Origin: Firmicutes bacterium CAG:341
GTDB lineage: Bacteria > Bacillota > Clostridia > Oscillospirales > Oscillospiraceae
Reading direction: 5' to 3'
NCBI GenBank assembly: GCA_963631875.1
Contig: CAVGSO010000001.1
Span: forward strand, 16,494 to 80,493
DNA: 64,000 bases
Numbering within the stretch: the stretch's first letter is position 1; each line of letters starts with the position of its first letter. The position numbers and the translations under genes are program-made. The notes below the pieces were generated by a model that was not told where the DNA came from, did not search any database, and was given only the letters and a program-made list of their open reading frames with translations. Below are positions 1 to 33,601 of the stretch, piece by piece.

Positions 1-52
1 ACATACACCTCTGTCGTTTGTTCGGTGGAAGACACCTGTGTATGCTATGTCG

Positions 53-91
53 TTCTAACATCGTTCTAACATTTCTAACGCGAATTCTAAC
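53..91 (+). repeat. Four direct copies of the heptamer TTCTAAC (starts at 53, 64, 73, 85)
   Basis: Read directly: cgTTCTAACa tcgTTCTAACa tTTCTAACg cgaaTTCTAACa, spaced 9-12 nt, in a lower-GC non-coding stretch. Confidence 0.85.
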
Positions 92-134
92 AAAACCGCC
101 AAAATCGGCTCATTTTTGGCGTTCACTCGAACCC

Positions 135-159
135 ATTGAAAAATCAAGCATTTTTCAAT
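135..159. repeat. Perfect 10-bp inverted repeat ATTGAAAAAT-N5-ATTTTTCAAT
   Basis: Read directly. A second hairpin, CGCCAAAA-N9-TTTTGGCG, lies about 35 nt upstream. Confidence 0.8.
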
Positions 160-257
160 GGCGGATGCCAAATTGCCTTGATTTTACTGCGTTTTTCGCG
201 GACAAATCAGCCTGAAAGCGATACGAGAAAACCTCGAAAGTAAAAATTGTCGAAAAT

Positions 258-313
258 CTCGAAATCAGTTTGCGAGCAATCGCACATGGGTTCGAATCCC
301 ATCCTCTCCGCCA
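258..313 (+). tRNA. 3' partial tRNA-Ser-like fragment: possible CUCGAAA anticodon loop, long variable arm, T-arm, 3' acceptor strand, G73 and encoded CCA. Probable att-site half
   Basis: tgcga-gcaa-tcgca variable-arm hairpin, then c-ATGGG-TTCGAAT-CCCAT-CCTCTCC-G-CCA ending at 313. No complementary GGAGAGG 5' acceptor strand occurs in the 100 nt upstream, and the 5' anticodon stem does not pair, so the gene is truncated. The 5' boundary is uncertain. Confidence 0.6.
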
Positions 314-318
314 ACGGA

Positions 319-350
319 AACCGCATAAGCCCTGTGTTTATGCGGTTTTT
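319..350 (+). terminator. Rho-independent terminator directly after the tRNA fragment
   Basis: AACCGCATAA-N9-TTATGCGGTT followed by TTTTT. Confidence 0.75.
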
Positions 351-365
351 CCATACCTATATTGC

Positions 366-397
366 AAAAGAGCAGGGATAAAAATCCCTGCTCTTTT
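366..397. terminator. Second hairpin terminator, A-tract/T-tract flanked, possibly bidirectional
   Basis: AAAAGAGCAGGGA-TAAAAA-TCCCTGCTCTTTT. Confidence 0.65.
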
Positions 398-589
398 GTT
401 ATTTCTGAGGGATGTTATCAAGAATTTTATGTTAACACTCCTCCGTTTCAGAGATCTGCGCCGGGCTTCCAAAGTGCTTTCAAAAGCCGAATTGTTGTAA
501 AATGTTATCAAATCGAGCAAAAAGATATCCTCTTGTCCAAGATGCATTGTCGTCCTACATGGGTTTTGTCTATTTCGCGCAAATATGCC

Positions 590-618
590 TTGCATTTCTC
601 GGAAAGTGTCGGTATAAT
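590..618 (+). promoter_or_regulatory. Sigma-70-type promoter for the alarmone synthetase gene
   Basis: TTGCAT (590-595), 17-nt spacer, TATAAT (613-618). Confidence 0.6.
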
Positions 619-703
619 TGCAGAGGAAGGTGCGTTTTGTTCATACGCAGGACATAGACCGATGGTATCATGACTTTACAACGACGTAAGGAGGACGCGG
701 CTT

Positions 704-1390
704 GTGATGATCGAAAAAAGCGGCAGCATCCGCTTGAAGGACCTCTCGCTCCCCCACCGTCTGACACCGCAGGAGCAGGAGCTGGCGGCGGGCATGGTGC
801 GGGTGACGCACCTCTACCGCAGTGCGCTGAAGGTGGCGGTGACGCAGATGGAGATACTGGACGAAGAATTTGCCCGACTGTATGACCACTCCCCGATCCA
901 CCACATCGAATACCGCATTAAATCGCTGGACAGCATTGTTGACAAGCTGCGCCGCCGCGGTCATGAGGTGAGCATCGACAATATCTACGCCCACATTCAG
1001 GACGTGGCCGGGATTCGCGTCATCTGCAACTATCTGGACGACATCTACTACCTGCGCTCGCTCCTGACACGCAGCGAGTCCTACACCGTGCTGCGGGAGG
1101 TGGACTACATCCGCCGTCCCAAGGAGACGGGCTACCGAAGCCTCCACCTCATCGTCAACGTGCCGTTCGTCATCTCCGAGGGGACGATGGTGCTGCCCGT
1201 GGAGATACAGCTTCGCACCATTGCGATGGATATGTGGGCGAGCTTGGAGCATGAGCTGCGCTACAAGTCCGACCGGCGCTTTACCGATGAGGACGCGGCG
1301 CGGCTGCGGCTCTGCTCCGACGCCATCAGCGAGATCGACCGCGAAATGCAGGACATTTATCAGGGAAACGAACCGCAGTACCATGCGTAG
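704..1390 (+). CDS. Small alarmone synthetase (RelA/SpoT-domain GTP pyrophosphokinase, RelQ/RelP/YjbM class)
   Basis: 228 aa. Motifs DVAGIRVICNY, GYRSLHLIV, EIQLRTIAMDMWASLEHELRYK. AAGGAGG sits 10 nt upstream of the GTG/ATG start. Confidence 0.9.
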   Translation: MMIEKSGSIRLKDLSLPHRLTPQEQELAAGMVRVTHLYRSALKVAVTQMEILDEEFARLYDHSPIHHIEYRIKSLDSIVDKLRRRGHEVSIDNIYAHIQDVAGIRVICNYLDDIYYLRSLLTRSESYTVLREVDYIRRPKETGYRSLHLIVNVPFVISEGTMVLPVEIQLRTIAMDMWASLEHELRYKSDRRFTDEDAARLRLCSDAISEIDREMQDIYQGNEPQYHA

Positions 1391-1400
1391 TCATACCGAA

Positions 1401-1432
1401 CGCCCTCTCCGACAAGCGGGGAGGGCGTTTTT
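1401..1432 (+). terminator. Terminator shared by convergent genes
   Basis: CGCCCTC...GAGGGCG stem followed by TTTTT. It overlaps the stop codon of the minus-strand GT-C gene. Confidence 0.65.
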
Positions 1433-2972
1433 ACGTCTTCTGCCGTTTCTTTTTCCTGCGCAGAGCTTGAACATACGCCATAAGCCGATTCAATTCATAC
1501 GCGGCCAGCGGGAGCATGGCGAAAACGTACATATACACGTACTGACTTTTCGTCTCCGAGAAAAAGTGAAAGATAAAGCCGCCGATGAAATACAGGTACA
1601 GAACCCTTGCGAACGGATACTCGTCTCTTCGCTTCACGGCGAAGCACAGCGCCGCCGCGAATATGATGACCACATCGGCTTTGGCGTACAAGGCTACGAG
1701 CTTCTCCAGCTTACCGCCGTTATAAAGCGACAGCAACACTCGCGTTGTTACCGACTCTGAGCCCTTTGGGCCGCTCCACGCCGACTGAAACATCGGCTCA
1801 CACCACGTGGAAAGTATCTTCCGCCAATAAAAGCTCGCCGCTTTCATCGGCTCTGCCAGACTTTCCGAGATGTTTTCCTTTATCTTCTCCTTCGCGTTCT
1901 GCGCGGCTGTCTCCGTGTCGTAATTCGCGGCAGCGTAGGCCGAAGTCGAGTATCCGTCCCACCAGCCCGGAGCTCTGACCTCATTGTTCAGGTCTGTCCC
2001 CATGGCGATATGAACCACGATGGGCGTTCCCTCCCCGATCTCGGTATGCGAGACGGCACTGTATACCGCTTTCAGCAAGCCAACCGCGCCGAAGGCGCAC
2101 ACCATCATCGCGGCCGCCGCCAAAATCGGCCTGCGGCTCTGCTTTTTCTCCTTCGTCGGCTTCAGGATAAGGATGATTGCCATGGCGATGACGCCTATTT
2201 TGAAGTTCGGCTTGATCAGCGCGGCGAGGGTCGAGAAGAGGATCAGGAGGCCTATGTCCTTTGGCCGACCGCCCTTATATACGCGGAGGCAAAAATACAG
2301 GGCGATCATCAGGCAGCAGAAGCCGGGGATAATGCCGTAGCCGAACATGATGAAAAGAAACTGCGGCAGAAATGCGAACTCAAGAAACAGGACAAGCCTG
2401 CTGACCGTCTCGTCTCCAAACAGCTCGTCCGTGAGCTTATACCCGAACCGGTTGATGAGCAGAACCTCCAGCAGATTGGCCGCGTAGAGGATTTTTGAAT
2501 TGCCGGAAAATGCACGGAGTATCAGGTCGTAGGTCGCCATACCTAACTGGAAGGGGAACTTTCCGATGTAGCCCTCCTTGCTCAAGGGAGAAAAATCACC
2601 ATGCAAAAAAGACCCCGCCGCACTCCAAACCAATGCTGCGTCCGCTCTTATGCAGGGGTTCGTGTTGAATATCCAGTACGCTCCGGCGATGAGATAGGCG
2701 ATGGAAAAGGTAATGAATATCCGCTTGGCGTCAAATTTCGCCGCTATTTTAAGGTAGAGATACGCGCACGCAAGCACCGCGGGGATGAACAGCGCGTACA
2801 AAAACGAGGCAGAATACGACACAACCTCCGATAAACTCACCCGGCTCGTTCTGATCAGATTGGCCGCAAAGACAAACGCGATCAAGCATATCGCAATGAG
2901 GTCTATGCCCGTGCGCCCGACTTTTTTGCAATCTTCAAGCCGCGTTGTCGTCATTCCCACGCTTTTCTTCAT
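1431..2972 (-). CDS. Polytopic membrane glycosyltransferase of the GT-C type, in the type-specific Gtr position (ArnT/PMT/YfhO-like)
   Basis: About 513 aa from the ATG at 2972 (GGAGAG RBS 6 nt upstream). At least 10 hydrophobic segments and a Lys/Arg-rich C-terminus. It sits immediately after gtrB-gtrA. The track start at 3029 is a TTG inside the repeated leader, so I rejected it. Confidence 0.6.
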   Translation of the reverse strand: MKKSVGMTTTRLEDCKKVGRTGIDLIAICLIAFVFAANLIRTSRVSLSEVVSYSASFLYALFIPAVLACAYLYLKIAAKFDAKRIFITFSIAYLIAGAYWIFNTNPCIRADAALVWSAAGSFLHGDFSPLSKEGYIGKFPFQLGMATYDLILRAFSGNSKILYAANLLEVLLINRFGYKLTDELFGDETVSRLVLFLEFAFLPQFLFIMFGYGIIPGFCCLMIALYFCLRVYKGGRPKDIGLLILFSTLAALIKPNFKIGVIAMAIILILKPTKEKKQSRRPILAAAAMMVCAFGAVGLLKAVYSAVSHTEIGEGTPIVVHIAMGTDLNNEVRAPGWWDGYSTSAYAAANYDTETAAQNAKEKIKENISESLAEPMKAASFYWRKILSTWCEPMFQSAWSGPKGSESVTTRVLLSLYNGGKLEKLVALYAKADVVIIFAAALCFAVKRRDEYPFARVLYLYFIGGFIFHFFSETKSQYVYMYVFAMLPLAAYELNRLMAYVQALRRKKKRQKT

Positions 2973-3021
2973 CTGTCTCTCTCCGTCTCTTGTTTTGCGC
3001 GCAAAGCAGCAAGGCAAGCGC

Positions 3022-3175
3022 CCCGACAAGCATACATATCCTTCCGGGTTCGGTAGAACCCGGAAACGCGGAGACGCAGAGCGCGCTCTGCGTCCCTATT
3101 TTGATGTCAACTGACCTTGCTTGCGCTGTCTATCTTACCCCGCTCCGTGCCTCTTGTCAACTCAAAAATCCTTCA
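3022..3175 (-). promoter_or_regulatory. Promoter-leader element, copy B, upstream of the GT-C gene
   Basis: On the minus strand: TTGACA (3155-3160), 17 nt, TAAGAT (3132-3137). Then a 22-bp perfect palindrome GACGCAGAGCGCGCTCTGCGTC (3073-3094) and a hairpin at 3042-3065. About 85% identical to 4621-4773. Confidence 0.7.
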
Positions 3176-3583
3176 CGCCCTCTTGCTTCGAAAGGCGAAA
3201 AATCGTTGTCCAAGATAATTCAGCGCGGTGTAGAGGCACATTCCGACCACCATGGCGACGTTTTCCTGAATGCGCGTGGAGGAACCCCGCAGCAGCCACA
3301 TGGCGGCGGGCTTCGCAAGGCCGTAGCCGATGAAGTAGCACACGGCCACATTCAGTGCAAACCGCCACACCTGCCGCCACGACCATTCTTTATTCTCAAA
3401 TGTGAAATACTTGTTCAGAAAGAAGCTCACGATGCCGCCGACCACGTAATTCGCCGCCGAGGACAGCCAGTACGAGCAGCTCGCCACGTTGTAGAGCAAA
3501 AACATCGTCCCGCAGCCGATAACCGTGTTGACGACACCGACCAGCAGAAACTTTGCGACCGTCTTATCCAGCAGCTTACTCAT
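3173..3583 (-). CDS. gtrA: GtrA family membrane protein (polyprenyl-phosphate-sugar flippase-like)
   Basis: 136 aa, four hydrophobic helices. Motifs KFLLVGVVNTVIG, FFLNKYFTF, LNYLGQRFFAF. Confidence 0.85.
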   Translation of the reverse strand: MSKLLDKTVAKFLLVGVVNTVIGCGTMFLLYNVASCSYWLSSAANYVVGGIVSFFLNKYFTFENKEWSWRQVWRFALNVAVCYFIGYGLAKPAAMWLLRGSSTRIQENVAMVVGMCLYTALNYLGQRFFAFRSKRA

Positions 3584-4532
3584 CGCCGTCCTCGCTTGTC
3601 TCCGCCACGATATAAATCGGGCGGTGCTTCGTTTCCAAATACGTCTTGGCGAGGTACTGGCCGAGGATGCCCATGCAGAGAAGCTGTATGCCGCCCAAGA
3701 ACAAGATCATACACGCCATGGACGGCCAACCGCCTACCGGATCACCAAAGGCCAGTGTTTTGACTACAATAACGACGATCGTCAGAAATGCAATAAAACA
3801 AAGAATCATGCCAAATACAGAGGCAAGCGCCAGCGGCGCGGTAGAAAATGCGGTAATCCCTTGCAGAGAATACTTGAAGAGCTTCCAGAAAGACCATTTC
3901 GTTTCTCCGGCAACACGTTCAATGTTCTCGTACGGCAGCCACTTTGTCCGAAATCCCACCCAGCCGAAAATGCCTTTTGAAAACCGATTGTATTCGCTCA
4001 TGGATAGAATCGCATCCACCATCTGCCGCTTCATCAGACGGAAATCCCGCGCTCCATCCACGATGTCCGCGTCGGATATGCGGTTGATGAGCTTATAGAA
4101 ACAGTGCGCGAAAAAACTGCGGACAGGCGGCTCGCCTTTTCTGTCTGCTCTCCGGGTGGCCACGGAATCATACTCGCCGCTCTGCAAGGCGTCGTACATC
4201 TCCGGCAGCAGCGCAGGCGGGTCTTGCATATCGGCGTCCATGATCGCTGCATAATCGCCCGCAGCGTTTTTCAACCCGGCGTACATCGCGGCCTCCTTAC
4301 CGAAATTGCGAGAGAAGGATATGTAGCGCACACGCTTGTCCTCCGAGGCGGCCTGACGGAGAATGTCAAGCGTGCCGTCCCCTGAGCCGTCGTTGACGAA
4401 CAAAATTTCAAATGCAGTCCCTCGGGTCGCGGACATATCATCCGCCACCCGCCGTATCTCTTCGAGGAAGTACGGCAGTGCCTCCTGCTCGTTGTAGCAG
4501 GGGACAACTATACTTAAGGTTTGGATTTTCAT
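3576..4532 (-). CDS. gtrB: GT2 polyprenyl-phosphate glycosyltransferase (GtrB/CsbB-like)
   Basis: 318 aa. Motifs SIVVPCYNEQE, FVNDGSGDGT, DADMQDPP, and two C-terminal transmembrane helices. Confidence 0.9.
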   Translation of the reverse strand: MKIQTLSIVVPCYNEQEALPYFLEEIRRVADDMSATRGTAFEILFVNDGSGDGTLDILRQAASEDKRVRYISFSRNFGKEAAMYAGLKNAAGDYAAIMDADMQDPPALLPEMYDALQSGEYDSVATRRADRKGEPPVRSFFAHCFYKLINRISDADIVDGARDFRLMKRQMVDAILSMSEYNRFSKGIFGWVGFRTKWLPYENIERVAGETKWSFWKLFKYSLQGITAFSTAPLALASVFGMILCFIAFLTIVVIVVKTLAFGDPVGGWPSMACMILFLGGIQLLCMGILGQYLAKTYLETKHRPIYIVAETSEDGDE

Positions 4533-5967: not shown

Positions 5968-7098
5968 TCATGCGGTGCAGAGGGCCTCCGCCGTAAGGCG
6001 GAGGGTTTCCTGCGTGACATTTTCGCCGGGGAACGGGGTGAGGACGTAGGCGCGTCCGTCTCCGTCGTTCCAGAAAATCGTCAGGCTCGCCTGCGTGGTG
6101 CAGAGGACGCCCCAATAGTCGCCGACGGCGAGCTGGGTCACGCTCACGCCGCCCGATGTGCCGTAGCAGAGGGAGACAAGATCGTCCACGGTGTAGGTCT
6201 TGGTGACGAGCAGGTCATAGCGCGCCTCCTGCGAGGAGACGGTGAGGTCGGCGCAGTCGTTTTCCGACGCGCCGTACCAGCTCACGGCCTCGGCGGAGAG
6301 GACGCGGACGGTGTCGGGGAATTTCAGTGTACCGACGAGCTTCGTGACCTCGTCCATACCGGGCAGCTCCTCGGGGAAGATTTCAAACGTCCCGGCCTCG
6401 CAGGCGGTGACGGAGACGGTGAGGTCGTCCGCCACGGTGAGGGCGAAGCGGAAGCCGTAGTCCTGCGCCGTGTCGTAGAGCAGGAGGTCCGTCTCGCCGG
6501 AGGTCAGGCCGGAGAGCTTGTAGGTGCAGCCGTCCTCGCCGAGCGACAGCTCGGCGGCGAGACGCGCCGCGTCGTAGTCAAGCGCCGTCCAGCTCCAAAG
6601 TGCCGTGTCGGCGTCGAGGAAGACGGAGAGACTGCCGTCCTCGTTCGTATAGCAGAGGGCGGAGGGCTTGCCGTCCTCCCCGGCCGAAGCGGCGGGCGGG
6701 AGGTCGGTATAGCTCGTGTCTGCGACGGTGAGCTTGCCCTTGTCGGAGGTGGTGAGGATAAAGTTGATGAGGAAGGCATCGTCGTAGGGGGCAGTGTCGC
6801 GGCGGCAGGCAAGGCGCACCGCGCCGCCGACCGTGCCCTGCGCGGTGATGTCGAAGACCGCGCTGCCGTCCGCGGCCGGCTCGGCGGCCGTGACGGTCAG
6901 GCCGCCGCTCTCCGCGCCCTCGGCGACCCACGACCAGCCCGCCTCGGGGGCGTTCTCCACGGTGACGCGGAGGCTGCCGCTGCCCGTGCTTTTCCAGCTG
7001 TACGGGTGGGATGATCCGCCGGCGGCGTGGGTGCGGGTACAGGCGGTAAGCAGTAGGGTCAGGAGTACACATACAGCAATCAGAAGCTTTTTTTTCAT
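5968..7098 (-). CDS. Lipoprotein of unknown function, translationally coupled to the upstream giant gene
   Basis: 376 aa. Signal peptide with lipobox LLLTAC. Its ATG overlaps the stop of the 1455-aa gene (ATGA at 7095-7098). Confidence 0.75.
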   Translation of the reverse strand: MKKKLLIAVCVLLTLLLTACTRTHAAGGSSHPYSWKSTGSGSLRVTVENAPEAGWSWVAEGAESGGLTVTAAEPAADGSAVFDITAQGTVGGAVRLACRRDTAPYDDAFLINFILTTSDKGKLTVADTSYTDLPPAASAGEDGKPSALCYTNEDGSLSVFLDADTALWSWTALDYDAARLAAELSLGEDGCTYKLSGLTSGETDLLLYDTAQDYGFRFALTVADDLTVSVTACEAGTFEIFPEELPGMDEVTKLVGTLKFPDTVRVLSAEAVSWYGASENDCADLTVSSQEARYDLLVTKTYTVDDLVSLCYGTSGGVSVTQLAVGDYWGVLCTTQASLTIFWNDGDGRAYVLTPFPGENVTQETLRLTAEALCTA

Positions 7099-24269: not shown

Positions 24270-25601
24270 TTAAAGCGGGCAGGGGAAGGCGGTGAAGACG
24301 GCGTGGCCGTTCGTGAGGGTGAACGGGTACTCATACGTCTCTGTTTCGTCGGTGAGGGTGGCCTTGCCGTTGTCGTCGAAGTCCTGACGTGTCAGGGTCT
24401 GGGTCAGCACGCCGCTCTCGCCGTCGAGCGTGACGGCATATGCGAGCTTGCCGATGGTGATGTCGCTGCCGCGCTCACCCATCGTGGCGTAGAGGACACC
24501 GTCCTTCTCGACGAATTTGCCCGTGGCGAGCCACTCGTCGGCAAGGCTTTCGCTGACATACGTACACAGGAGGTCACGCAGGTCGGCAAGCGTGGTGACA
24601 TAGCCGAGCTCCACGGGGTAGAGCTCCGTGCCGTCGTCCGTCTTGGCCGTGGAGACTTCGGAGGCCAGCGGCGGCATGGTCATATAGAACCACGACCACA
24701 TGGTCTGCGCGGCGTAGTAGTCGGAGATAACCGCGTCCTCCTGCGGAACGGTCAGCAGGAGCTGCACCTTTGCGTCGAGGGCATAGTAAAAGTCGCTGTA
24801 CGGGATGTCGAAGCTCTGCGCTCCGGCGGCGTAGGGTGCGAGGATGTAGACGTCGAAATAGACGGTCATGCCCGTCTCGGTGAAGTAGAAGCTCGCGTTT
24901 TCGGCAAGGTCATTCACCTTGTCAAGATAGTCGTCAAAGTAACCGTCGGCGAGGCTGCTGTCGTATATCTGCGAGGAAATCTTGGTGGCCAGCAGGCTCG
25001 TCAGGTTCTTGCTGAGAGGGTCTTCCTGATTGGCGAGGTTGTCGAAGGTGAGGAACTCACCCGTGAGGATGTCGAAATTCCACGTCTTGAGACCGGTGTT
25101 GGGGTGCGTGCCGCCGCCGCTGCTGTACGCGGTGCAGACGGCGCTGGCCAGCCCCTCGGTCTGGTAGCCGCTCTCGTAGGTCAGCTCCTCGGCGTAGGGC
25201 ATCCAGTTGGCCTTGCCCTCGTCGTCAAGGGCTTCATAGGCGGCCTTGGCATTTTCGAGGGACTCCTGCGCGGCGGTGTCAAGCGACTCGGCGGCCTTGA
25301 CGATCTCGGCGTTGAAGTCCGCGCAGCTCTCCGCCATGGGCGAATCGTCAAACTCGTAGAGCTGGCCGTCCTTCGTGTAGAGGGCGAGCTGCGGAAGGGT
25401 GTATTTCTCGGTCAGCAGCACCACGCCGTCGTCATTGGAGAAGCTCTCCTCCTTGGTGAGCGTCGCCTCCATGACCACGTGGGGCGCAGCGGTGTCGGTG
25501 GTGTCGGTGGTCGTGTCGTCCGTCTGTGTCTGCGTCGTGCCGCAGGCAGCGAGAGAGAGGACAAGTGCGAGGGAAAGTGCGAGGGATAAAAGCTTTTTCA
25601 T
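24270..25601 (-). CDS. Lipoprotein with DUF4163/DUF3298 (RsiV/PdaC-type) domains plus a C-terminal extension
   Basis: 443 aa. Lipobox LSLAAC. Motifs SSGGGTHPNTGLKTWNFDILTGEFLTFDNL and YILAPYAAGAQSFDIPYSDF. Confidence 0.75.
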   Translation of the reverse strand: MKKLLSLALSLALVLSLAACGTTQTQTDDTTTDTTDTAAPHVVMEATLTKEESFSNDDGVVLLTEKYTLPQLALYTKDGQLYEFDDSPMAESCADFNAEIVKAAESLDTAAQESLENAKAAYEALDDEGKANWMPYAEELTYESGYQTEGLASAVCTAYSSGGGTHPNTGLKTWNFDILTGEFLTFDNLANQEDPLSKNLTSLLATKISSQIYDSSLADGYFDDYLDKVNDLAENASFYFTETGMTVYFDVYILAPYAAGAQSFDIPYSDFYYALDAKVQLLLTVPQEDAVISDYYAAQTMWSWFYMTMPPLASEVSTAKTDDGTELYPVELGYVTTLADLRDLLCTYVSESLADEWLATGKFVEKDGVLYATMGERGSDITIGKLAYAVTLDGESGVLTQTLTRQDFDDNGKATLTDETETYEYPFTLTNGHAVFTAFPCPL

Positions 25602-25645: not shown

Positions 25646-27265
25646 TTATTTCTGACCGCCGAGATAGCGGATGGCCAGCATCGTGATGTCATCAAACTGC
25701 GGGGCTTCGCCGACAAAGGTGTCGATGTCCGCCTTCAGCTTCGGCAGCAGCTCAAGCGGCGTGTCGGCAAGGTGGCTGTTGAGCGAGGCGAGCATACGGT
25801 CGGTGCCGTACAGCTCGTTGTTCGCGTCCGTCGCCTCGGCCACACCGTCGGTGTAGACGAAAAGCCTGTCGCCCGGAGCGAGCTGCAGGGTGTACTCCTG
25901 ATAGCGGCTGGAGTCGAGGCAGGCCAGCACAAGGCCGTGCGGGTCCTTGACCAGCTCGTATTCGCCGTTGGCGCGGCAGAGGGCGGGGTACTCGTGACCT
26001 GCGTTGGCGCAGGTGAGCTTCCCGGTGGACAGCTCCAAGATACCGAGCCACACGGTGACGAACATATCGATGGGGTTGTTGACGCAGAGCTGACCGTTGA
26101 CCTCCTCCAAGACCTCCTTGGGGGATTTGCCGCTCTGTGCGCTGTTTTTCAGCAGCACCTTGGTGATGACCATGAAGAGCGCGGCGGGGACACCCTTGCC
26201 GGACACGTCCGCGATAACGAGGGCCAAGTGGTCGTCATCGACGAGGAAGTAGTCGTAGAAATCGCCGCCGACCTCCTTGGCCGGGGTCATGGTGGCGTAG
26301 ATGTCGAACTCCGTGCGCTCGGGGAAGGCGGGGAAGATACACGGGAGCATACTGGACTGAATTTCCGTGGCGACAGACAGCTCCGCGCCGATGCGCTCCT
26401 TCTCCGCCGTGATGGCGGTGAGGTTTTGGATATAGTCGTAGATGCTCTGCTCCATCTCGCGCACGGCCTGATAGAGCCGCCCCATCTCGTCCCCTCGATG
26501 GAGCTGCGGGACGTTGAGCATACTCTGCTCGTGCGTGACCTCCCCGGCCTTCTGCTTTTTGATGAAGTTGTCCGCGATGGCGGACAGGCGGTTGAGCGGC
26601 GCGACGAGCAGCAGCTGCGCGGAGATGGCGGACAGCACCACAAGCACGGCGGTGATGATGAGCAGTATACGGATGAGGTTCGTCAAAAATGATTGCTCCG
26701 CCGCCTCCGTCTCCTTCATGGAGAAGATGACGGCCATGTAGCCGCGGGTCGTGCCGCTATCGTCCCGGATGGGCGCAAGGGCGTAGACCGCGCCCGCGCC
26801 GCGGCTCTCCTGCCGGACGGCGGGAACGGTTTCGCCCGCCATAAGCTTATCCTGTATGGCGATGAACTCCGGGAACGTGAACGTCTGAATCTCGCCTAAT
26901 TGCAGCGCACCGGGGCGGGTGTCGGTATTATAGACGACGTAGAAGCCCTCGTCGGACGGCTTGAGGCAGCAGATGGCGACCACACCGTAGTACTGCTGGA
27001 TCTCCATCAGGCGCGACTGCACGCTGATGTAGCTCTCGTCCGTTGCGCCGCGTTCAAGGTAGCGGTCGATGGAGTCCGGCTCGACGAGTGCGGCCGTGGC
27101 CACGGCCAAGTTCTCCGCTGTCTGCGTGACCTGACTGTCGAGGTTTTCACGGTAGGCGTTGTAGCTGAACCACACCGCCGCACCGCCGATGACCACGGCG
27201 ATGAGGATGATGTTCAGGACGCTCTTCATGCCCATCGAGAAGCGGATCTTGTATTTTTTTGTCAT
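25646..27265 (-). CDS. Membrane-bound PP2C (SpoIIE/RsbU-family) serine phosphatase with an extracytoplasmic sensor domain and a HAMP-like linker
   Basis: About 539 aa from the ATG at 27265 (GGAGGA RBS). Transmembrane helix, loop of about 190 aa, second transmembrane helix. Motifs GGDFYDYF, VIADVSGKGVPAAL, FDDITMLAI. Confidence 0.85.
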   Translation of the reverse strand: MTKKYKIRFSMGMKSVLNIILIAVVIGGAAVWFSYNAYRENLDSQVTQTAENLAVATAALVEPDSIDRYLERGATDESYISVQSRLMEIQQYYGVVAICCLKPSDEGFYVVYNTDTRPGALQLGEIQTFTFPEFIAIQDKLMAGETVPAVRQESRGAGAVYALAPIRDDSGTTRGYMAVIFSMKETEAAEQSFLTNLIRILLIITAVLVVLSAISAQLLLVAPLNRLSAIADNFIKKQKAGEVTHEQSMLNVPQLHRGDEMGRLYQAVREMEQSIYDYIQNLTAITAEKERIGAELSVATEIQSSMLPCIFPAFPERTEFDIYATMTPAKEVGGDFYDYFLVDDDHLALVIADVSGKGVPAALFMVITKVLLKNSAQSGKSPKEVLEEVNGQLCVNNPIDMFVTVWLGILELSTGKLTCANAGHEYPALCRANGEYELVKDPHGLVLACLDSSRYQEYTLQLAPGDRLFVYTDGVAEATDANNELYGTDRMLASLNSHLADTPLELLPKLKADIDTFVGEAPQFDDITMLAIRYLGGQK

Positions 27266-27296
27266 ACTCGGTGTTTCCTCCTCATGCCGCACCAAA

Positions 27297-27707
27297 TCAG
27301 AGCTTTTTGCGGATGGTGAGGATATTCTTGCCGTCCTCATACGAGTATTCAACATCGTCCATGTTCTTCTTGACGAGGAAAATGCCGAGGCCGCCGATTT
27401 CGCGGGATTCGGCACTGGCGGTGACGTCTACGTCCTCGCGGTCGAGGGGATTAAAGGGCTTGCCGCGGTCGAGGAAGCGGATGGTAACCGTGGGCGGGTC
27501 GCCGCCCGCGTCCACGTCCACCTCCGCCTCACCCAGCTCGGGGTGGTAGGCGTAGTTGGCGATGTTGACGAAGATCTCCTCGACCGCCAGCTCGACCTGC
27601 ATTTGAACCTTCGGCGAGCAGCCGTACTTTTCAAGCTCCGTGCCGATGAAGTCGTTGACGGTCGTCAACTGGTTGACCTCGGCGGGGACACGCATTGTTT
27701 TCATCAT
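27297..27707 (-). CDS. RsbW/SpoIIAB-like anti-sigma-factor serine kinase (HATPase_c_2)
   Basis: 136 aa. N-box AVEEIFVNIANYAY, G-box IGGLGIFLVKK. AAGGAG RBS. Confidence 0.85.
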   Translation of the reverse strand: MMKTMRVPAEVNQLTTVNDFIGTELEKYGCSPKVQMQVELAVEEIFVNIANYAYHPELGEAEVDVDAGGDPPTVTIRFLDRGKPFNPLDREDVDVTASAESREIGGLGIFLVKKNMDDVEYSYEDGKNILTIRKKL

Positions 27708-27750: not shown

Positions 27751-30633
27751 TTATTTCGGCTGCACCTGCTGCTGCGGCTGCTCGCCGAGCTTGACGCCGC
27801 TGCCCAGCTCTATTCCGCGCACCTTCAAGCTGCGTTCCAGATTGGTCTTGAACAGCTTGTTTTCCAGCAGGATATTTTTCGCCATTTCCAGCGGCTTCTT
27901 TCCCTCAAGCACCTTGGAAATCTTCTCGATAGAGGCGCGGTTTCCCTTCTCCGTGGCGACCTCCTTGAGCATATCTCCGAAGTCCTTCGTCATCTTCACC
28001 TCGGCTTGCAGCACCTCGCTTGCCTCCTTGTCGCGCAGCAGCCGCGACAGGCGGTTTCCGCTGCCGAGTTCCTCAAGCTGCATCATACCCAAAATGACGT
28101 AGCTGCTCAGGAGGTTGGCCGTCTTGGTCACATCGTAGTTTTCCGTCCCCTTGGCCACCTCCGCCTGCAGGTCGTTCATTTGGGGCGCGACGGTCTTCGT
28201 CGCAAAGTCATACACGCCGAGGCCCACGCTGCTGAGCTTTTTCTGCGCCTCGCTGAGCGATGTGCTCACCGCATCGCGGGCTTCAAGGTCCGTCTTGATA
28301 TCCACCGCCTCGGGCAGCTCACGCGCGAGCTGCTCGGCATCGAAGGTCGCCAGGAAGCGCGTCAGCTTCTCGTTGCCGAGTTCGCTGACGGGGCCTCCCG
28401 TGATCTCCATCACGGCCTCTTCGCCCAAATTCTTGATCTGCTCCTGCGCGGTCGCGGCGTCGGCAAAGCTGCGTTCGATGGGGCCGACGCCCGCCTTGTT
28501 CTGCGCGCTGCGCTGCGCACGCTCGGTCTTAATCATCTCCGCGGCGATCATGCCGCCCACGAAGCTGACGGCGTTCTCCTGCGAGAGGTTGGTGCTGGCG
28601 ACGTAGTGCTGCACACTCGCCGTGCTTTTGGGGTCGATGACGAGGAAGCGCATGATGCCGTTGTTGCCCTCCTGAATGGCGGCGGCCACCGCCTCGGGGT
28701 ATTCCTCGTTCCTGTACGTGCGGCCCGTGGACTCCAGCCATCTGGACAGGTTCTGACGGCGGATCGAGTTCTCCCGGTATTTATCCTCGCGAGCCACATT
28801 GGCGCGAATTTCCGCACCCTGCATCCCGCGGTATTTCTCCAAATCGTGCCGCGCTTTGTCCGCAAGCTCCATCTCGTCCAGCTTCGTCGTCAGATGCTCC
28901 CGCAGTGCGTTTGCCACGCGGATATGACCGCGCTCCAAATCGTTGTGACCCTCGCCGACGTTCTCGCGCTCCTTGCCTTCAATGTAGGTATCGCAGAGCT
29001 TCAACACCTCTCGGTACTGCTTGGCAAGCGCCTCGCGCTCATTCTTCTTGTCACTCAGGGGCTTGCCCTCGGCGGCCAGCGCCTCGAACGCCTCGCGCAT
29101 ACGCTTGAAGTTGCCGGAGCGGGTCTGATACCACTTGTCGGAGTCGGCAAACTGCTTGAGCAGCGCCGTGTTCTCGGCCTCCAAGCCGTAATTGAACAGC
29201 GCCTCCGGCTTGCTCCACGTCATCGCGGCGGACATCGGGTTCTTCAGCGTCAGCACCGCCACGCGCTCGCCCTGCCGGAACAGCAGCGGGCGGCCGCTCT
29301 TGAGCTCATTCACGCCCGCCTCATCTTTCAGGTGGCGCTTGCCGTTCGCGTCAAACTCGTCACAGAAGCACTCCACGCCGTTCTCGCCGCCAAGCGTGAA
29401 GCCGTATCCCTCCACCGTGCTTTGGAACGTATCGTCTATCTCAAGATCGCGGCTCCCGATGATGCTGGCCGCCATGTCGCCCAGCATATCACGAAGTCCG
29501 TCGGAAACACCGCGACCGCCAAGGCGCGCATACCGTAAAACCTCCGGGCACTTTCGCTCGCGCTCGGCTCTGAACGAGGTACCCCTGTCGTCATCGTAGA
29601 GGTCGTCGTCATACTTTTCCTTCAGCTTTCCGAGATCATACTGATCCGCCAGCAGCTCCGGGTCGAGGAACTCATACATCGGATTGGTGCGTATCATGAT
29701 ACGCTTGAACGCCTCATTATGCTGCCCCTGCAGATTCTTCCTCCAGTCCTCCAGCTGCTGTCTCTCCTGCTCCGTCAGGCTGAGATCGTTCCGCTGGCGG
29801 AAGTCGTTGTCGATGTCCATCAGCAGTCCGTTGGCTCTGGCGATCTTGGCGAGGTTCTCGCCCTGCACCTCCGGCGGCAGACTGCCGTCGGCCATCTCAT
29901 ACACATTTCTTGTATCGTCCAGTGCCTCCCGCATCATCCCCATCAGCATATCGGTACGCCGCCGGGAAAGCTCCGCCTGAAGCTGCTCGCGGATCTCCGC
30001 GTCGCTCACATTGGCCAGCTCCGGGTCGCTCGCCCGCCGCCGGGGAACGGCCTCTGCGAAGTACGCGTTCCAGTGATTGGGGTTCGTGTCGAACAGGAAA
30101 GCGATCTCCTCGTTCCGCAGATCAACGCGCTGCTGTTCCGCCTCCAGCTCCTCCTGCGTTGCGCCGGGATTTTCGCGGAAAAACTGGTCGGGCTGCACAT
30201 TGTAATAGAACAGCCAACCCACGCCGCGTGAAAACTGGCGCCTGTCCGCCTCCAGTCGCTGCCGCTCCTGCTCCGACAGCACGAAGTTGGTCTGCGGATT
30301 TGCCCGTCCCTGATCCTGATAGTAGATATAGCCGTTAGGTATCTCCGTGTGATTCTGCATCACGGAATAGATGGCCTGCCGCAGACGCTGGGAACACTCC
30401 CGCCGCTCACGGCGTTCCTCGCCGGTATAGCGCGGCATGGGGCGGTACGGGATGCCCGGACGGCGGTACCCGGGGTTATCCAACAGCTCGAATATCTCCC
30501 TCTCGGAGTACATGGGGGGCAGCTCCTCGGTGAAATACCGCTCCACCTCGGCGCGTACCTGCTCCTCGGTCATCTGCGGATTTCCCCTCCTTATGCCCGC
30601 TCTCAGGGCAGACAGGGTATCATATGTGCTCAT
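27751..30633 (-). CDS. Large helical protein of unknown function, paralogue B, no signal peptide
   Basis: 960 aa. GGAAGGAG RBS. Collinear with 30674-33601 along its whole length, and the C-terminal tail is near-identical. Confidence 0.8.
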   Translation of the reverse strand: MSTYDTLSALRAGIRRGNPQMTEEQVRAEVERYFTEELPPMYSEREIFELLDNPGYRRPGIPYRPMPRYTGEERRERRECSQRLRQAIYSVMQNHTEIPNGYIYYQDQGRANPQTNFVLSEQERQRLEADRRQFSRGVGWLFYYNVQPDQFFRENPGATQEELEAEQQRVDLRNEEIAFLFDTNPNHWNAYFAEAVPRRRASDPELANVSDAEIREQLQAELSRRRTDMLMGMMREALDDTRNVYEMADGSLPPEVQGENLAKIARANGLLMDIDNDFRQRNDLSLTEQERQQLEDWRKNLQGQHNEAFKRIMIRTNPMYEFLDPELLADQYDLGKLKEKYDDDLYDDDRGTSFRAERERKCPEVLRYARLGGRGVSDGLRDMLGDMAASIIGSRDLEIDDTFQSTVEGYGFTLGGENGVECFCDEFDANGKRHLKDEAGVNELKSGRPLLFRQGERVAVLTLKNPMSAAMTWSKPEALFNYGLEAENTALLKQFADSDKWYQTRSGNFKRMREAFEALAAEGKPLSDKKNEREALAKQYREVLKLCDTYIEGKERENVGEGHNDLERGHIRVANALREHLTTKLDEMELADKARHDLEKYRGMQGAEIRANVAREDKYRENSIRRQNLSRWLESTGRTYRNEEYPEAVAAAIQEGNNGIMRFLVIDPKSTASVQHYVASTNLSQENAVSFVGGMIAAEMIKTERAQRSAQNKAGVGPIERSFADAATAQEQIKNLGEEAVMEITGGPVSELGNEKLTRFLATFDAEQLARELPEAVDIKTDLEARDAVSTSLSEAQKKLSSVGLGVYDFATKTVAPQMNDLQAEVAKGTENYDVTKTANLLSSYVILGMMQLEELGSGNRLSRLLRDKEASEVLQAEVKMTKDFGDMLKEVATEKGNRASIEKISKVLEGKKPLEMAKNILLENKLFKTNLERSLKVRGIELGSGVKLGEQPQQQVQPK

Positions 30634-30673
30634 AGAAATTCTCCTTCCGCTAACTTAAATACCTGTATGTGTA

Positions 30674-33601: not shown

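Follow-up and report, generated by a model that had tools for sequence, protein, structure and literature searches.

To our knowledge, the type IV secretion systems (T4SSs) known from monoderm bacteria are almost all conjugation machines, and dedicated protein-secreting versions, like their cargo, have barely been described. T4SS cargo with a C-terminal signal domain is an already known concept: the Bep effectors of the Bartonella VirB/VirD4 T4SS combine a helical BID domain of ~140 aa with a short, basic, unstructured tail. Beps lack a Sec signal, diverge in their N-terminal parts and are encoded next to virB/virD4 in tandem paralog arrays that arose by duplication. Here we analyze a 64,000-nt stretch of the genome of Firmicutes bacterium CAG:341 (contig CAVGSO010000001.1, positions 16,494–80,493; the window), in which two tandem genes, A and B, lead the first operon of a T4SS locus. 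A and B encode collinear paralogs whose C-terminal domain (CTD) is homogenized by gene conversion, and we tentatively propose, with a probability of roughly 45%, that they are putative T4SS cargo or docking clients with a two-part C-terminal signal.

Like the Beps, A and B are tandem paralogs with divergent N-terminal parts, a folded helical domain followed by a basic unstructured tail, and no Sec signal. They differ in that the CTD has neither sequence nor fold similarity to BID, in that their bodies are homologous over the full length and contain no FIC or known module, and in that their host is monoderm and Clostridia-like. In Xanthomonas and Stenotrophomonas, the co-resident effectors (X-Tfe) of a bacteria-killing T4SS carry an XVIPCD of ~120–150 aa, which binds VirD4 (PMC6536674). 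A and B resemble X-Tfe proteins as co-resident proteins with a common C-terminal domain of about this size, but show no XVIPCD similarity and no recognizable toxin domain, and the machine in their locus is MPF-FATA-like and monoderm. No adjacent immunity gene was identified for A and B; only the lipoproteins of the locus were noted, with no further look.

The nearest literature analog of the machine itself is found in Patescibacteria, where relaxase-less chromosomal T4SSs of the MPF-FATA type are taken to have a non-conjugative role in a study that names no cargo (PMC12102498). Both have VirB4, a coupling protein and a PF18895/VirB2-like pilin and lack a recognizable relaxase, whereas the window represents another phylum and its locus adds an extracytoplasmic function (ECF) sigma factor and a partner-switching trio. 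By NCBIfam, the VirB4 and VirB6-like proteins of the window match best the module of Mycoplasma integrative and conjugative elements (ICEs; Mbov_0397 VirB4 and Mbov_0396/MMCAP2_0566), the former at 527 bits, below the family cut-off of 590, and the latter at 152 bits. Unlike a Mycoplasma ICE, the window contains no DDE transposase or other ICE maintenance gene among the open reading frames (ORFs) scanned, which reach up to ~53.6 kb, and A and B match no NCBIfam model.

A and B also fall outside four known classes. Pfam found neither a BID domain nor an N-terminal LXG or WXG100 domain, and the locus has VirB4 and VirD4 as its ATPases rather than one of the EssC type; Pfam, NCBIfam and Foldseek found no XVIPCD family or fold; and Pfam, NCBIfam, a Protein Data Bank (PDB) profile search and Foldseek found no relaxase (HUH, Rep_trans or other), with an all-α model that does not suit HUH. 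If they are cargo, A and B would form a new effector-like family outside the BID, XVIPCD, relaxase and LXG classes.

A and B are collinear paralogs with a common C-terminal domain

The two genes and their parts lie at the following window positions:

30674–33601, minus strand: gene B, 975 aa, upstream paralog and first in the operon (ORF and ribosome-binding site)
27751–30633, minus strand: gene A, 960 aa, downstream paralog (ORF call)
27805–28236, minus strand: CTD of A, ~residues 800–943 (from conversion limits in relatives, identity matrices, synonymous divergence and fold)
30749–31180, minus strand: CTD of B, ~residues 808–951 (from the BLASTP register, in which A residue 799 aligns with B residue 807)
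27754–27804, minus strand: extreme C-terminus of A, residues 944–960, disordered, rich in Gln, Pro and Lys, and specific to A types (pLDDT <50)
30677–30748, minus strand: extreme C-terminus of B, residues 952–975, with the B-type ending ...KPPVNGQSNPSVMGQH
27835–27936, minus strand: most recent conversion tract in A (partner in B, 30779–30880)

The ORF of B extends to 33634, but translation most likely starts at ATG 33601, because this codon is preceded by the ribosome-binding site GAAGGGAG and a public collection holds the exact 975-aa product in annotated form. The ribosome-binding site of A is GGAAGGAG. BLASTP aligns A and B end to end with 38% identity and 54% positives, in agreement with the initial annotation, which had described them as collinear paralogs; the shared sequence blocks quoted there are all found in both proteins. 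Both are acidic and hydrophilic (pI ~5.2, mean hydropathy [GRAVY] –0.78). As had also been noted, hydropathy analysis reveals neither a signal peptide nor a transmembrane segment in A or B (highest Kyte-Doolittle 19-residue mean ~1.0). No other large protein of the locus lacks both export and membrane signals, which makes A and B candidate cargo by elimination.

Each protein can be divided into three parts: a divergent body of ~800 aa, which defines the paralog type and may carry its function, a CTD of ~145 aa, and a short, disordered, net-basic terminus. The CTD is predicted to be helical and to fold separately. Residues 790–960 of A, modeled alone, give nine helices and a disordered end of ~20 residues at a pLDDT of 84 and a pTM of 0.82, and the unit is triplicated in two relatives (P0033 and P0038). 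In these models, the homogenized stretch is a discrete structural unit.

Gene conversion homogenizes the C-terminal domain

The similarity of A and B at their C-terminal ends is far beyond chance. Aligning the genes maps the most recent tract to 102 nt (27835–27936 in A, 30779–30880 in B) of which 4 are mismatched and 63 form an exact core; a 75-nt stretch within it (27856–27930 versus 30800–30874), for which a single difference had been claimed, indeed contains exactly 1 mismatch, at 27919. At the protein level, the initial annotation had described the last ~55 residues as almost identical and as a conserved tail. Strong similarity is borne out, but the identity between A residues 897–949 and B is 79%, only ~30 residues are identical, and the last 17–24 residues differ. 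Moreover, this segment is not a simple tail but the end of the folded ~145-aa CTD: raised A–B similarity reaches upstream to ~residue 830 of A in the window and to ~residue 800 in relatives.

Conversion and strong purifying selection had both been offered as explanations. In a codon-level comparison, identity at third codon positions is 0.97 in A residues 904–934 versus 0.3–0.6 over most of the gene. Synonymous divergence (pS) between A and B is 0.53–0.59 in the body (~0.55 in the window) and drops in the CTD to 0.31 in the window, 0.20 in the related locus L001 and 0.11 in L005. Since synonymous sites are homogenized too, gene conversion, and not merely purifying selection, homogenizes the CTD.

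Relatives delimit the tract. Within the genomes of L001 and L005–L008, the nucleotide identity of A and B is 0.87–1.00 over ~160 codons versus 0.53–0.55 upstream, and the longest exact runs in relatives reach 155 nt. In all five loci, the upstream boundary lies at A residues 799–805 and the downstream boundary 10–25 codons before the stop. The tract of the window itself is older and partly decayed, except for the recent patch of ~100 nt. The CTD (residues 800–943) of A and B from the same genome shares an amino-acid identity of 0.62 in the window, 0.78 in L001 and 0.86–0.89 in L005–L007, versus 0.35–0.57 between lineages regardless of paralog type. In contrast, the bodies (residues 1–790) of A and B from the same genome are 0.34–0.39 identical, while body identity between lineages tracks paralog type (orthologs 0.49–0.93). 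Because CTD identity follows the genome and body identity follows the type, we conclude that at least three lineages have seen concerted evolution of the CTD. A comparison across lineages shows equal divergence in the CTD of A and in the body of B, which suggests that B overwrites A, i.e. that conversion may run from B to A. The CTD at first seemed to evolve faster than the remainder of the protein, but this holds only relative to the body of A; CTD divergence equals that of the B body.

The uniformity of the tails could be functionally neutral, a recombination by-product of tandem repeats that is seeded in the most conserved region, carries no information on secretion and is compatible with any role of the proteins. 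Tandem genes in direct orientation at a spacing of 2944 nt favor conversion, homogenized synonymous sites are what conversion without selection predicts, and the match between CTD divergence and that of the B body looks as if B simply overwrites A. Against neutrality stand the positions at which conversion stops. The tract limits match the edges of the folding unit in independent lineages (L001 and L005–L008), and the blocks at residues 440–510 and 560–575, which are as conserved (amino-acid identity ~0.6), are not homogenized. We take these two observations as the main argument that functional constraint acts on conversion, and consider a neutral origin of the tail identity rather unlikely.

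The pair is linked to a T4SS

In the window, the B–A operon continues with an RsbW-like kinase, a membrane SpoIIE-type phosphatase and a DUF3298/PdaC lipoprotein, so that the position at the head of an operon with these three genes, as initially described, holds. A 490-nt gap with a near-consensus promoter separates it from a second unit, which encodes, in this order, an ECF sigma factor, a VirB2-like pilin, a 152-aa ORF, a secreted 489-aa protein, VirD4, an anchored 314-aa protein, a VirB6-like protein, VirB4, a STAS protein, a secreted 1461-aa PLAT-domain protein and a lipoprotein. The features of both units outside A and B are:

33689–33717, minus strand: promoter-like site upstream of B (TGGACA, 17-nt spacer, TG-extended TAAAAT; consensus match only)
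27297–27707, minus strand: RsbW/SpoIIAB-like serine kinase (HATPase_c_2, Pfam E = 6e-26), 43 nt downstream of A
25646–27415, minus strand: membrane SpoIIE/PP2C phosphatase (Pfam E = 1e-50)
24270–25601, minus strand: DUF3298/PdaC lipoprotein, last gene of the B–A operon
23949–23922, minus strand: promoter-like site before the ECF sigma gene (TTGACG, 16-nt spacer, TATAAT)
23299–23781, minus strand: ECF sigma factor, heading the machinery operon (NCBIfam E = 1.5e-23)
22868–23266, minus strand: VirB2-like T4SS pilin (PF18895 E = 8e-14)
18802–20826, minus strand: VirD4-type coupling protein, candidate receptor of A and B (PF02534 E = 2e-55; 91% identical to relatives)
15668–17809, minus strand: VirB6-like polytopic membrane protein (NCBIfam MMCAP2_0566/Mbov_0396; transmembrane segments)
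11792–15622, minus strand: VirB4 ATPase, 1276 aa, with an N-terminal membrane segment
11496–11795, minus strand: STAS-domain protein, partner-switching antagonist (PF01740 E = 4e-13)

Thus VirB4, VirD4, a VirB6-like protein and a pilin are all present. On one side, the locus is flanked by genes for butyrate kinase, a glycosyltransferase and RelA/SpoT, and on the other by holB and PSP1, all of them housekeeping genes. Because of these flanks and because no relaxase, integrase or transposase was found among the scanned ORFs, the machine is probably chromosomal and not conjugative.

The linkage is kept in relatives. Four loci (L005–L008) have the identical order B, A, kinase, SpoIIE, lipoprotein, pilin, 489-aa protein, VirD4 and VirB6-like protein; relative to the window, their machinery is 75–91% identical, A 61–70% and B 55–57%. 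A subfamily that is only ~25% identical (P0156 and P0030, loci L014–L016) adjoins a type-2 helical protein, an ECF sigma factor, the pilin, VirD4 and the VirB6-like protein; here the housekeeping flanks differ from those of the window, and the T4SS neighbors are kept without kinase and phosphatase genes. In L001, the pair comes after a SpoIIE gene at the contig end. Copy number in the family ranges from 1 to 5 per locus. The VirD4/VirB4 linkage claimed initially thus extends to relatives at ~25% identity, and a T4SS with a coupling protein accompanies the family in the window, L005–L008 and L014–L016. The link is strong, but adjacency is not universal, the exception being one lineage (L018/L019).

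Three side observations concern these relatives. The near-syntenic loci L005–L013 (53–59% GC) come from metagenome-assembled genomes labeled Bacteroidaceae, Lachnospiraceae, Absicoccus, Bulleidia and Paludibacteraceae; these labels are mutually incompatible, so mis-binned contigs or mislabeling are likely. In L010, a STAS domain is fused to an APH-type kinase (1847–3028, 393 aa) directly upstream of a single-copy family member, a second, different link of the family to phospho-signaling. In the L018/L019 lineage, the island (L018 3321–18949) encodes paralogs of 799, 733, 957, 762 and 1045 aa together with a 225-aa lipoprotein, and polyphosphate kinases, a tRNA-binding protein and CstA are encoded on its flanks; the 733-aa gene seems to be disrupted in L018, where only a 157-aa remnant is called.

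A and B as candidate T4SS cargo

An unstructured, net-positive C-terminus in a protein without a Sec signal is a trait of T4SS substrates, which A and B share in composition, as distinct from function. The last 65 residues carry a net charge of +7 in A and +4 in B, and the last 17 residues of A have a pLDDT <50. Among 104 superfamily members, 93% have a net-positive charge over the last 30 residues (mean +3.0 versus –0.8 per 30 aa in the body), and K, Q, P, N, S, G and E make up 61% of these residues versus 34% in control proteins of the window. Of the charged C-terminal signal that the initial annotation had suspected, a net-positive disordered end across the superfamily is borne out in composition, but not a sequence common to A and B: A types end in ...QQPVQQVPNK and B types in ...KPPV.GQ.NPPVMGQH, each conserved among orthologs, and the last 17–24 residues are not shared. 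The ending PPVMG was considered as a general signal and discarded, as it is confined to B-type proteins and a third paralog in L006 and L008.

A and B also evolve fast. The ratio of nonsynonymous to synonymous substitutions (dN/dS) is 0.32–0.58 for A and B, 0.06–0.08 for VirD4 and 0.11–0.16 for SpoIIE. A value of 2.4 for B between L006 and L007 was an alignment artifact and became 0.46 on recomputation. Together with the wide variation in copy number and size, these rates resemble effector evolution and favor the cargo reading.

We propose that expression of the first operon of the locus yields A and B in the cytoplasm, along with the kinase, phosphatase and lipoprotein. A and B would dock on VirD4 or an adaptor via the CTD and the basic terminus and would then be exported through the VirB4/VirB6/pilin apparatus. 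Because both paralogs would have to fit the same receptor, repeated conversion of the CTD would be tolerated or favored, while conversion running into the body would not, which would leave sharp, recurrent tract boundaries. In a bolder version, which we hold more loosely, A and B may be the founders of the first cargo family of a relaxase-less, protein-secreting T4SS in Clostridia-like gut bacteria. CTD and basic terminus would then constitute a new two-part signal that conversion keeps uniform across the co-resident cargo of each strain, and the wider superfamily would be the effector repertoire of the machine.

The locus offers a probably chromosomal machine without a recognizable relaxase, a superfamily without annotation or fold match in PDB or BFVD, and a sharply bounded CTD homogenized by recombination. 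If the CTD is a docking signal, cargo of such machines in gut Clostridia would become recognizable from sequence alone, and the pair would be an unusually clean natural case of a secretion signal kept by concerted evolution. Even if secretion fails as an explanation, a new, confidently modeled helical architecture with clear domain-limited gene conversion stands.

Several observations weigh against export. No known T4SS signal domain shows detectable similarity to the CTD; the best Foldseek match of the CTD model in the PDB has E = 0.54 and a TM-score <0.4, and no BID entry is among the 50 matches listed. Nor is the CTD always terminal, since the tail-helix motif is internal in giant relatives (at ~residues 950–1000 of 1500–3725 aa). 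Neutral B-to-A conversion can explain much of the pattern of CTD divergence without selection, given that the CTD of A and the body of B diverge equally between lineages. dN/dS is <1 throughout. Tight co-evolution of the CTD with the bulk of VirD4 is not evident, because between the window and L005 VirD4 keeps 91% identity and the CTD only ~55%. Finally, no T4SS gene lies within 10 kb of the island of five superfamily paralogs in the L018/L019 lineage.

A and B may instead remain cytoplasmic and serve the machine or the partner-switching module as accessory, scaffold or regulatory proteins, with the CTD as a homotypic oligomerization domain and conversion maintaining A–B assembly. The neighborhood invites this idea: kinase and SpoIIE genes lie directly downstream in the window and in L005–L008, SpoIIE directly upstream in L001, and the STAS-APH kinase fusion upstream in L010. 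Helical CTDs of the same sequence in both proteins would suit homotypic packing, and no export signal was found in A or B. Yet the distant L014–L016 subfamily dispenses with kinase and phosphatase while keeping its T4SS neighbors, and copy numbers of 1–5, sizes up to 3725 aa and a dN/dS 4–8 times that of VirD4 are unusual for stoichiometric structural or regulatory parts. A cytoplasmic role also leaves the basic disordered C-terminus of the whole superfamily unexplained, and we regard it as unlikely.

Still less probable is that the family is unrelated to the T4SS, its co-location reflecting a shared regulon or island history. The L018/L019 island and the single-copy members in L004/L011, which have no neighboring T4SS gene in the DNA at hand, would fit. 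However, adjacency is kept across ~25% identity and different chromosomal flanks, and the contigs without T4SS genes are short or end at the gene.

The superfamily of A and B

A search of 5.8 billion cluster representatives returned only 17 close relatives, none of them named, and a word-indexed search repeated with a 39-sequence alignment yielded the same 17 proteins and nothing further. A profile search of 1.84 billion representatives gave 112 proteins at E <0.001. The relatives comprise at least a dozen subfamilies with sizes from ~600 to 3725 aa: type-1 forms of ~950–1250 aa, distant type-2 forms of ~600–860 aa and giants of 1500–3725 aa, in which the module forms the N-terminal ~940 residues. 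Around EKISKVLEGKKPLEMAKNIL, the proteins share an old helix pair with the pattern L..K.PQ..A..I, which recurs throughout the superfamily, and a Tyr (Y550) and several Arg and Lys residues are invariant throughout.

Seven giants (P0048, P0051, P0056, P0060, P0062, P0065 and P0066; 1781–3725 aa) continue for 1000–2800 residues after their N-terminal module, a stretch in which scans of three of them detected no Pfam domain, and end in a conserved C-terminal block of their own (…GMYNFI…EYR.LA…) followed by a basic tail. A polymorphic-toxin reading of the giants was dropped as unsupported, the C-terminal extensions scanned containing no Pfam domain.

The AlphaFold2 model of A (pLDDT 86.9, pTM 0.68) is almost entirely α-helical, with a small β unit at residues 421–463. 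Foldseek searches with the full model against PDB and BFVD and with the CTD against PDB gave best E values of 0.04–0.9 at TM-scores ≤0.4; these weak matches are generic helical repeats and tape-measure proteins. A sequence-profile search of the PDB with the family yielded no match, and Pfam, NCBIfam, PADLOC and PHROGs returned only sub-threshold noise for A and B (e.g. Rv0078B, E = 0.0012, 19 bits, cut-off 27). A tblastn search with A found no relative in 72,556 plasmids and 50,697 phage records, and none came from two JGI metagenome scans, one with the giant and one with the P0020 subfamily. Literature searches turned up neither the family nor a Clostridial T4SS that is regulated in this way. 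As far as the libraries and literature searched show, the family and its domain-limited concerted evolution are undescribed.

The idea that A and B are novel DNA-processing or pilot proteins replacing the relaxase in a cryptic conjugation or chromosome-transfer system could draw on the Mycoplasma ICE conjugation components as closest matches of VirB4 and the VirB6-like protein, on the lack of a recognizable relaxase in the locus, on relaxases being large cytoplasmic T4SS substrates, and on the invariant Y550, Arg and Lys residues, but is very improbable, as Pfam, NCBIfam, PDB profile and Foldseek searches found no HUH, Rep_trans, Tyr-recombinase, primase or nucleic-acid signature, A and B are acidic (pI 5.2), relaxases do not occur as islands of 2–5 divergent paralogs, and the locus has housekeeping flanks and no integrase or excisionase among the scanned ORFs. 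Both this explanation and that of an unrelated family rank below cargo and a non-secreted role.

Other features of the locus

The T4SS locus has its own ECF sigma factor and a full partner-switching set (RsbW-like kinase, SpoIIE/PP2C phosphatase and STAS protein), a layout for which no precedent in a T4SS was found. The true start of the SpoIIE gene is probably downstream of 27415; similarity to relatives starts at ORF residues 27–34. In Bordetella, the btr system controls type III secretion through the ECF sigma factor BtrS and the partner-switchers BtrU, BtrV and BtrW. Like btr, the window locus unites an ECF sigma factor and the elements of partner switching (PP2C phosphatase, STAS protein and RsbW-like kinase); secretion type and phylum differ, and the resemblance, seen in gene content, is regulatory only.

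The machinery unit spans ~5968–23781 on the minus strand. The C-terminal third of its VirB6-like protein is a long, low-complexity extension rich in Pro, Thr and Gly with near-repeats (…PAEPTKVTNPTQPQPAEPTKITNPTQPQ…). Two secreted proteins, one of 1461 aa (7095–11480, minus strand) with only a weak PLAT/LH2 match (E = 7e-5) and one of 489 aa (20879–22348, minus strand) with no match, may be surface or contact components. The 152-aa ORF (22345–22803, minus strand) has an atypical codon-position GC content (GC1 0.78 and GC3 0.72 versus ~0.6 and ~0.85 in its neighbors). The gap between the pilin and 489-aa protein genes in L005–L008 (~140–210 nt) leaves no room for it, and a gene for 147–149 aa occupies its position in L014 and L016; it may be a real gene, possibly for an anti-sigma factor, or a miscall.

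At the edge of the window, positions 1–4000 have a GC content of 52–53.5% versus ~62% elsewhere. The adjoining stretch up to ~4532 encodes a GT2 glycosyltransferase, a GtrA-like protein and a PMT_2-type glycosyltransferase, and the segment 1–4600 may be a horizontally acquired surface-glycosylation cassette.

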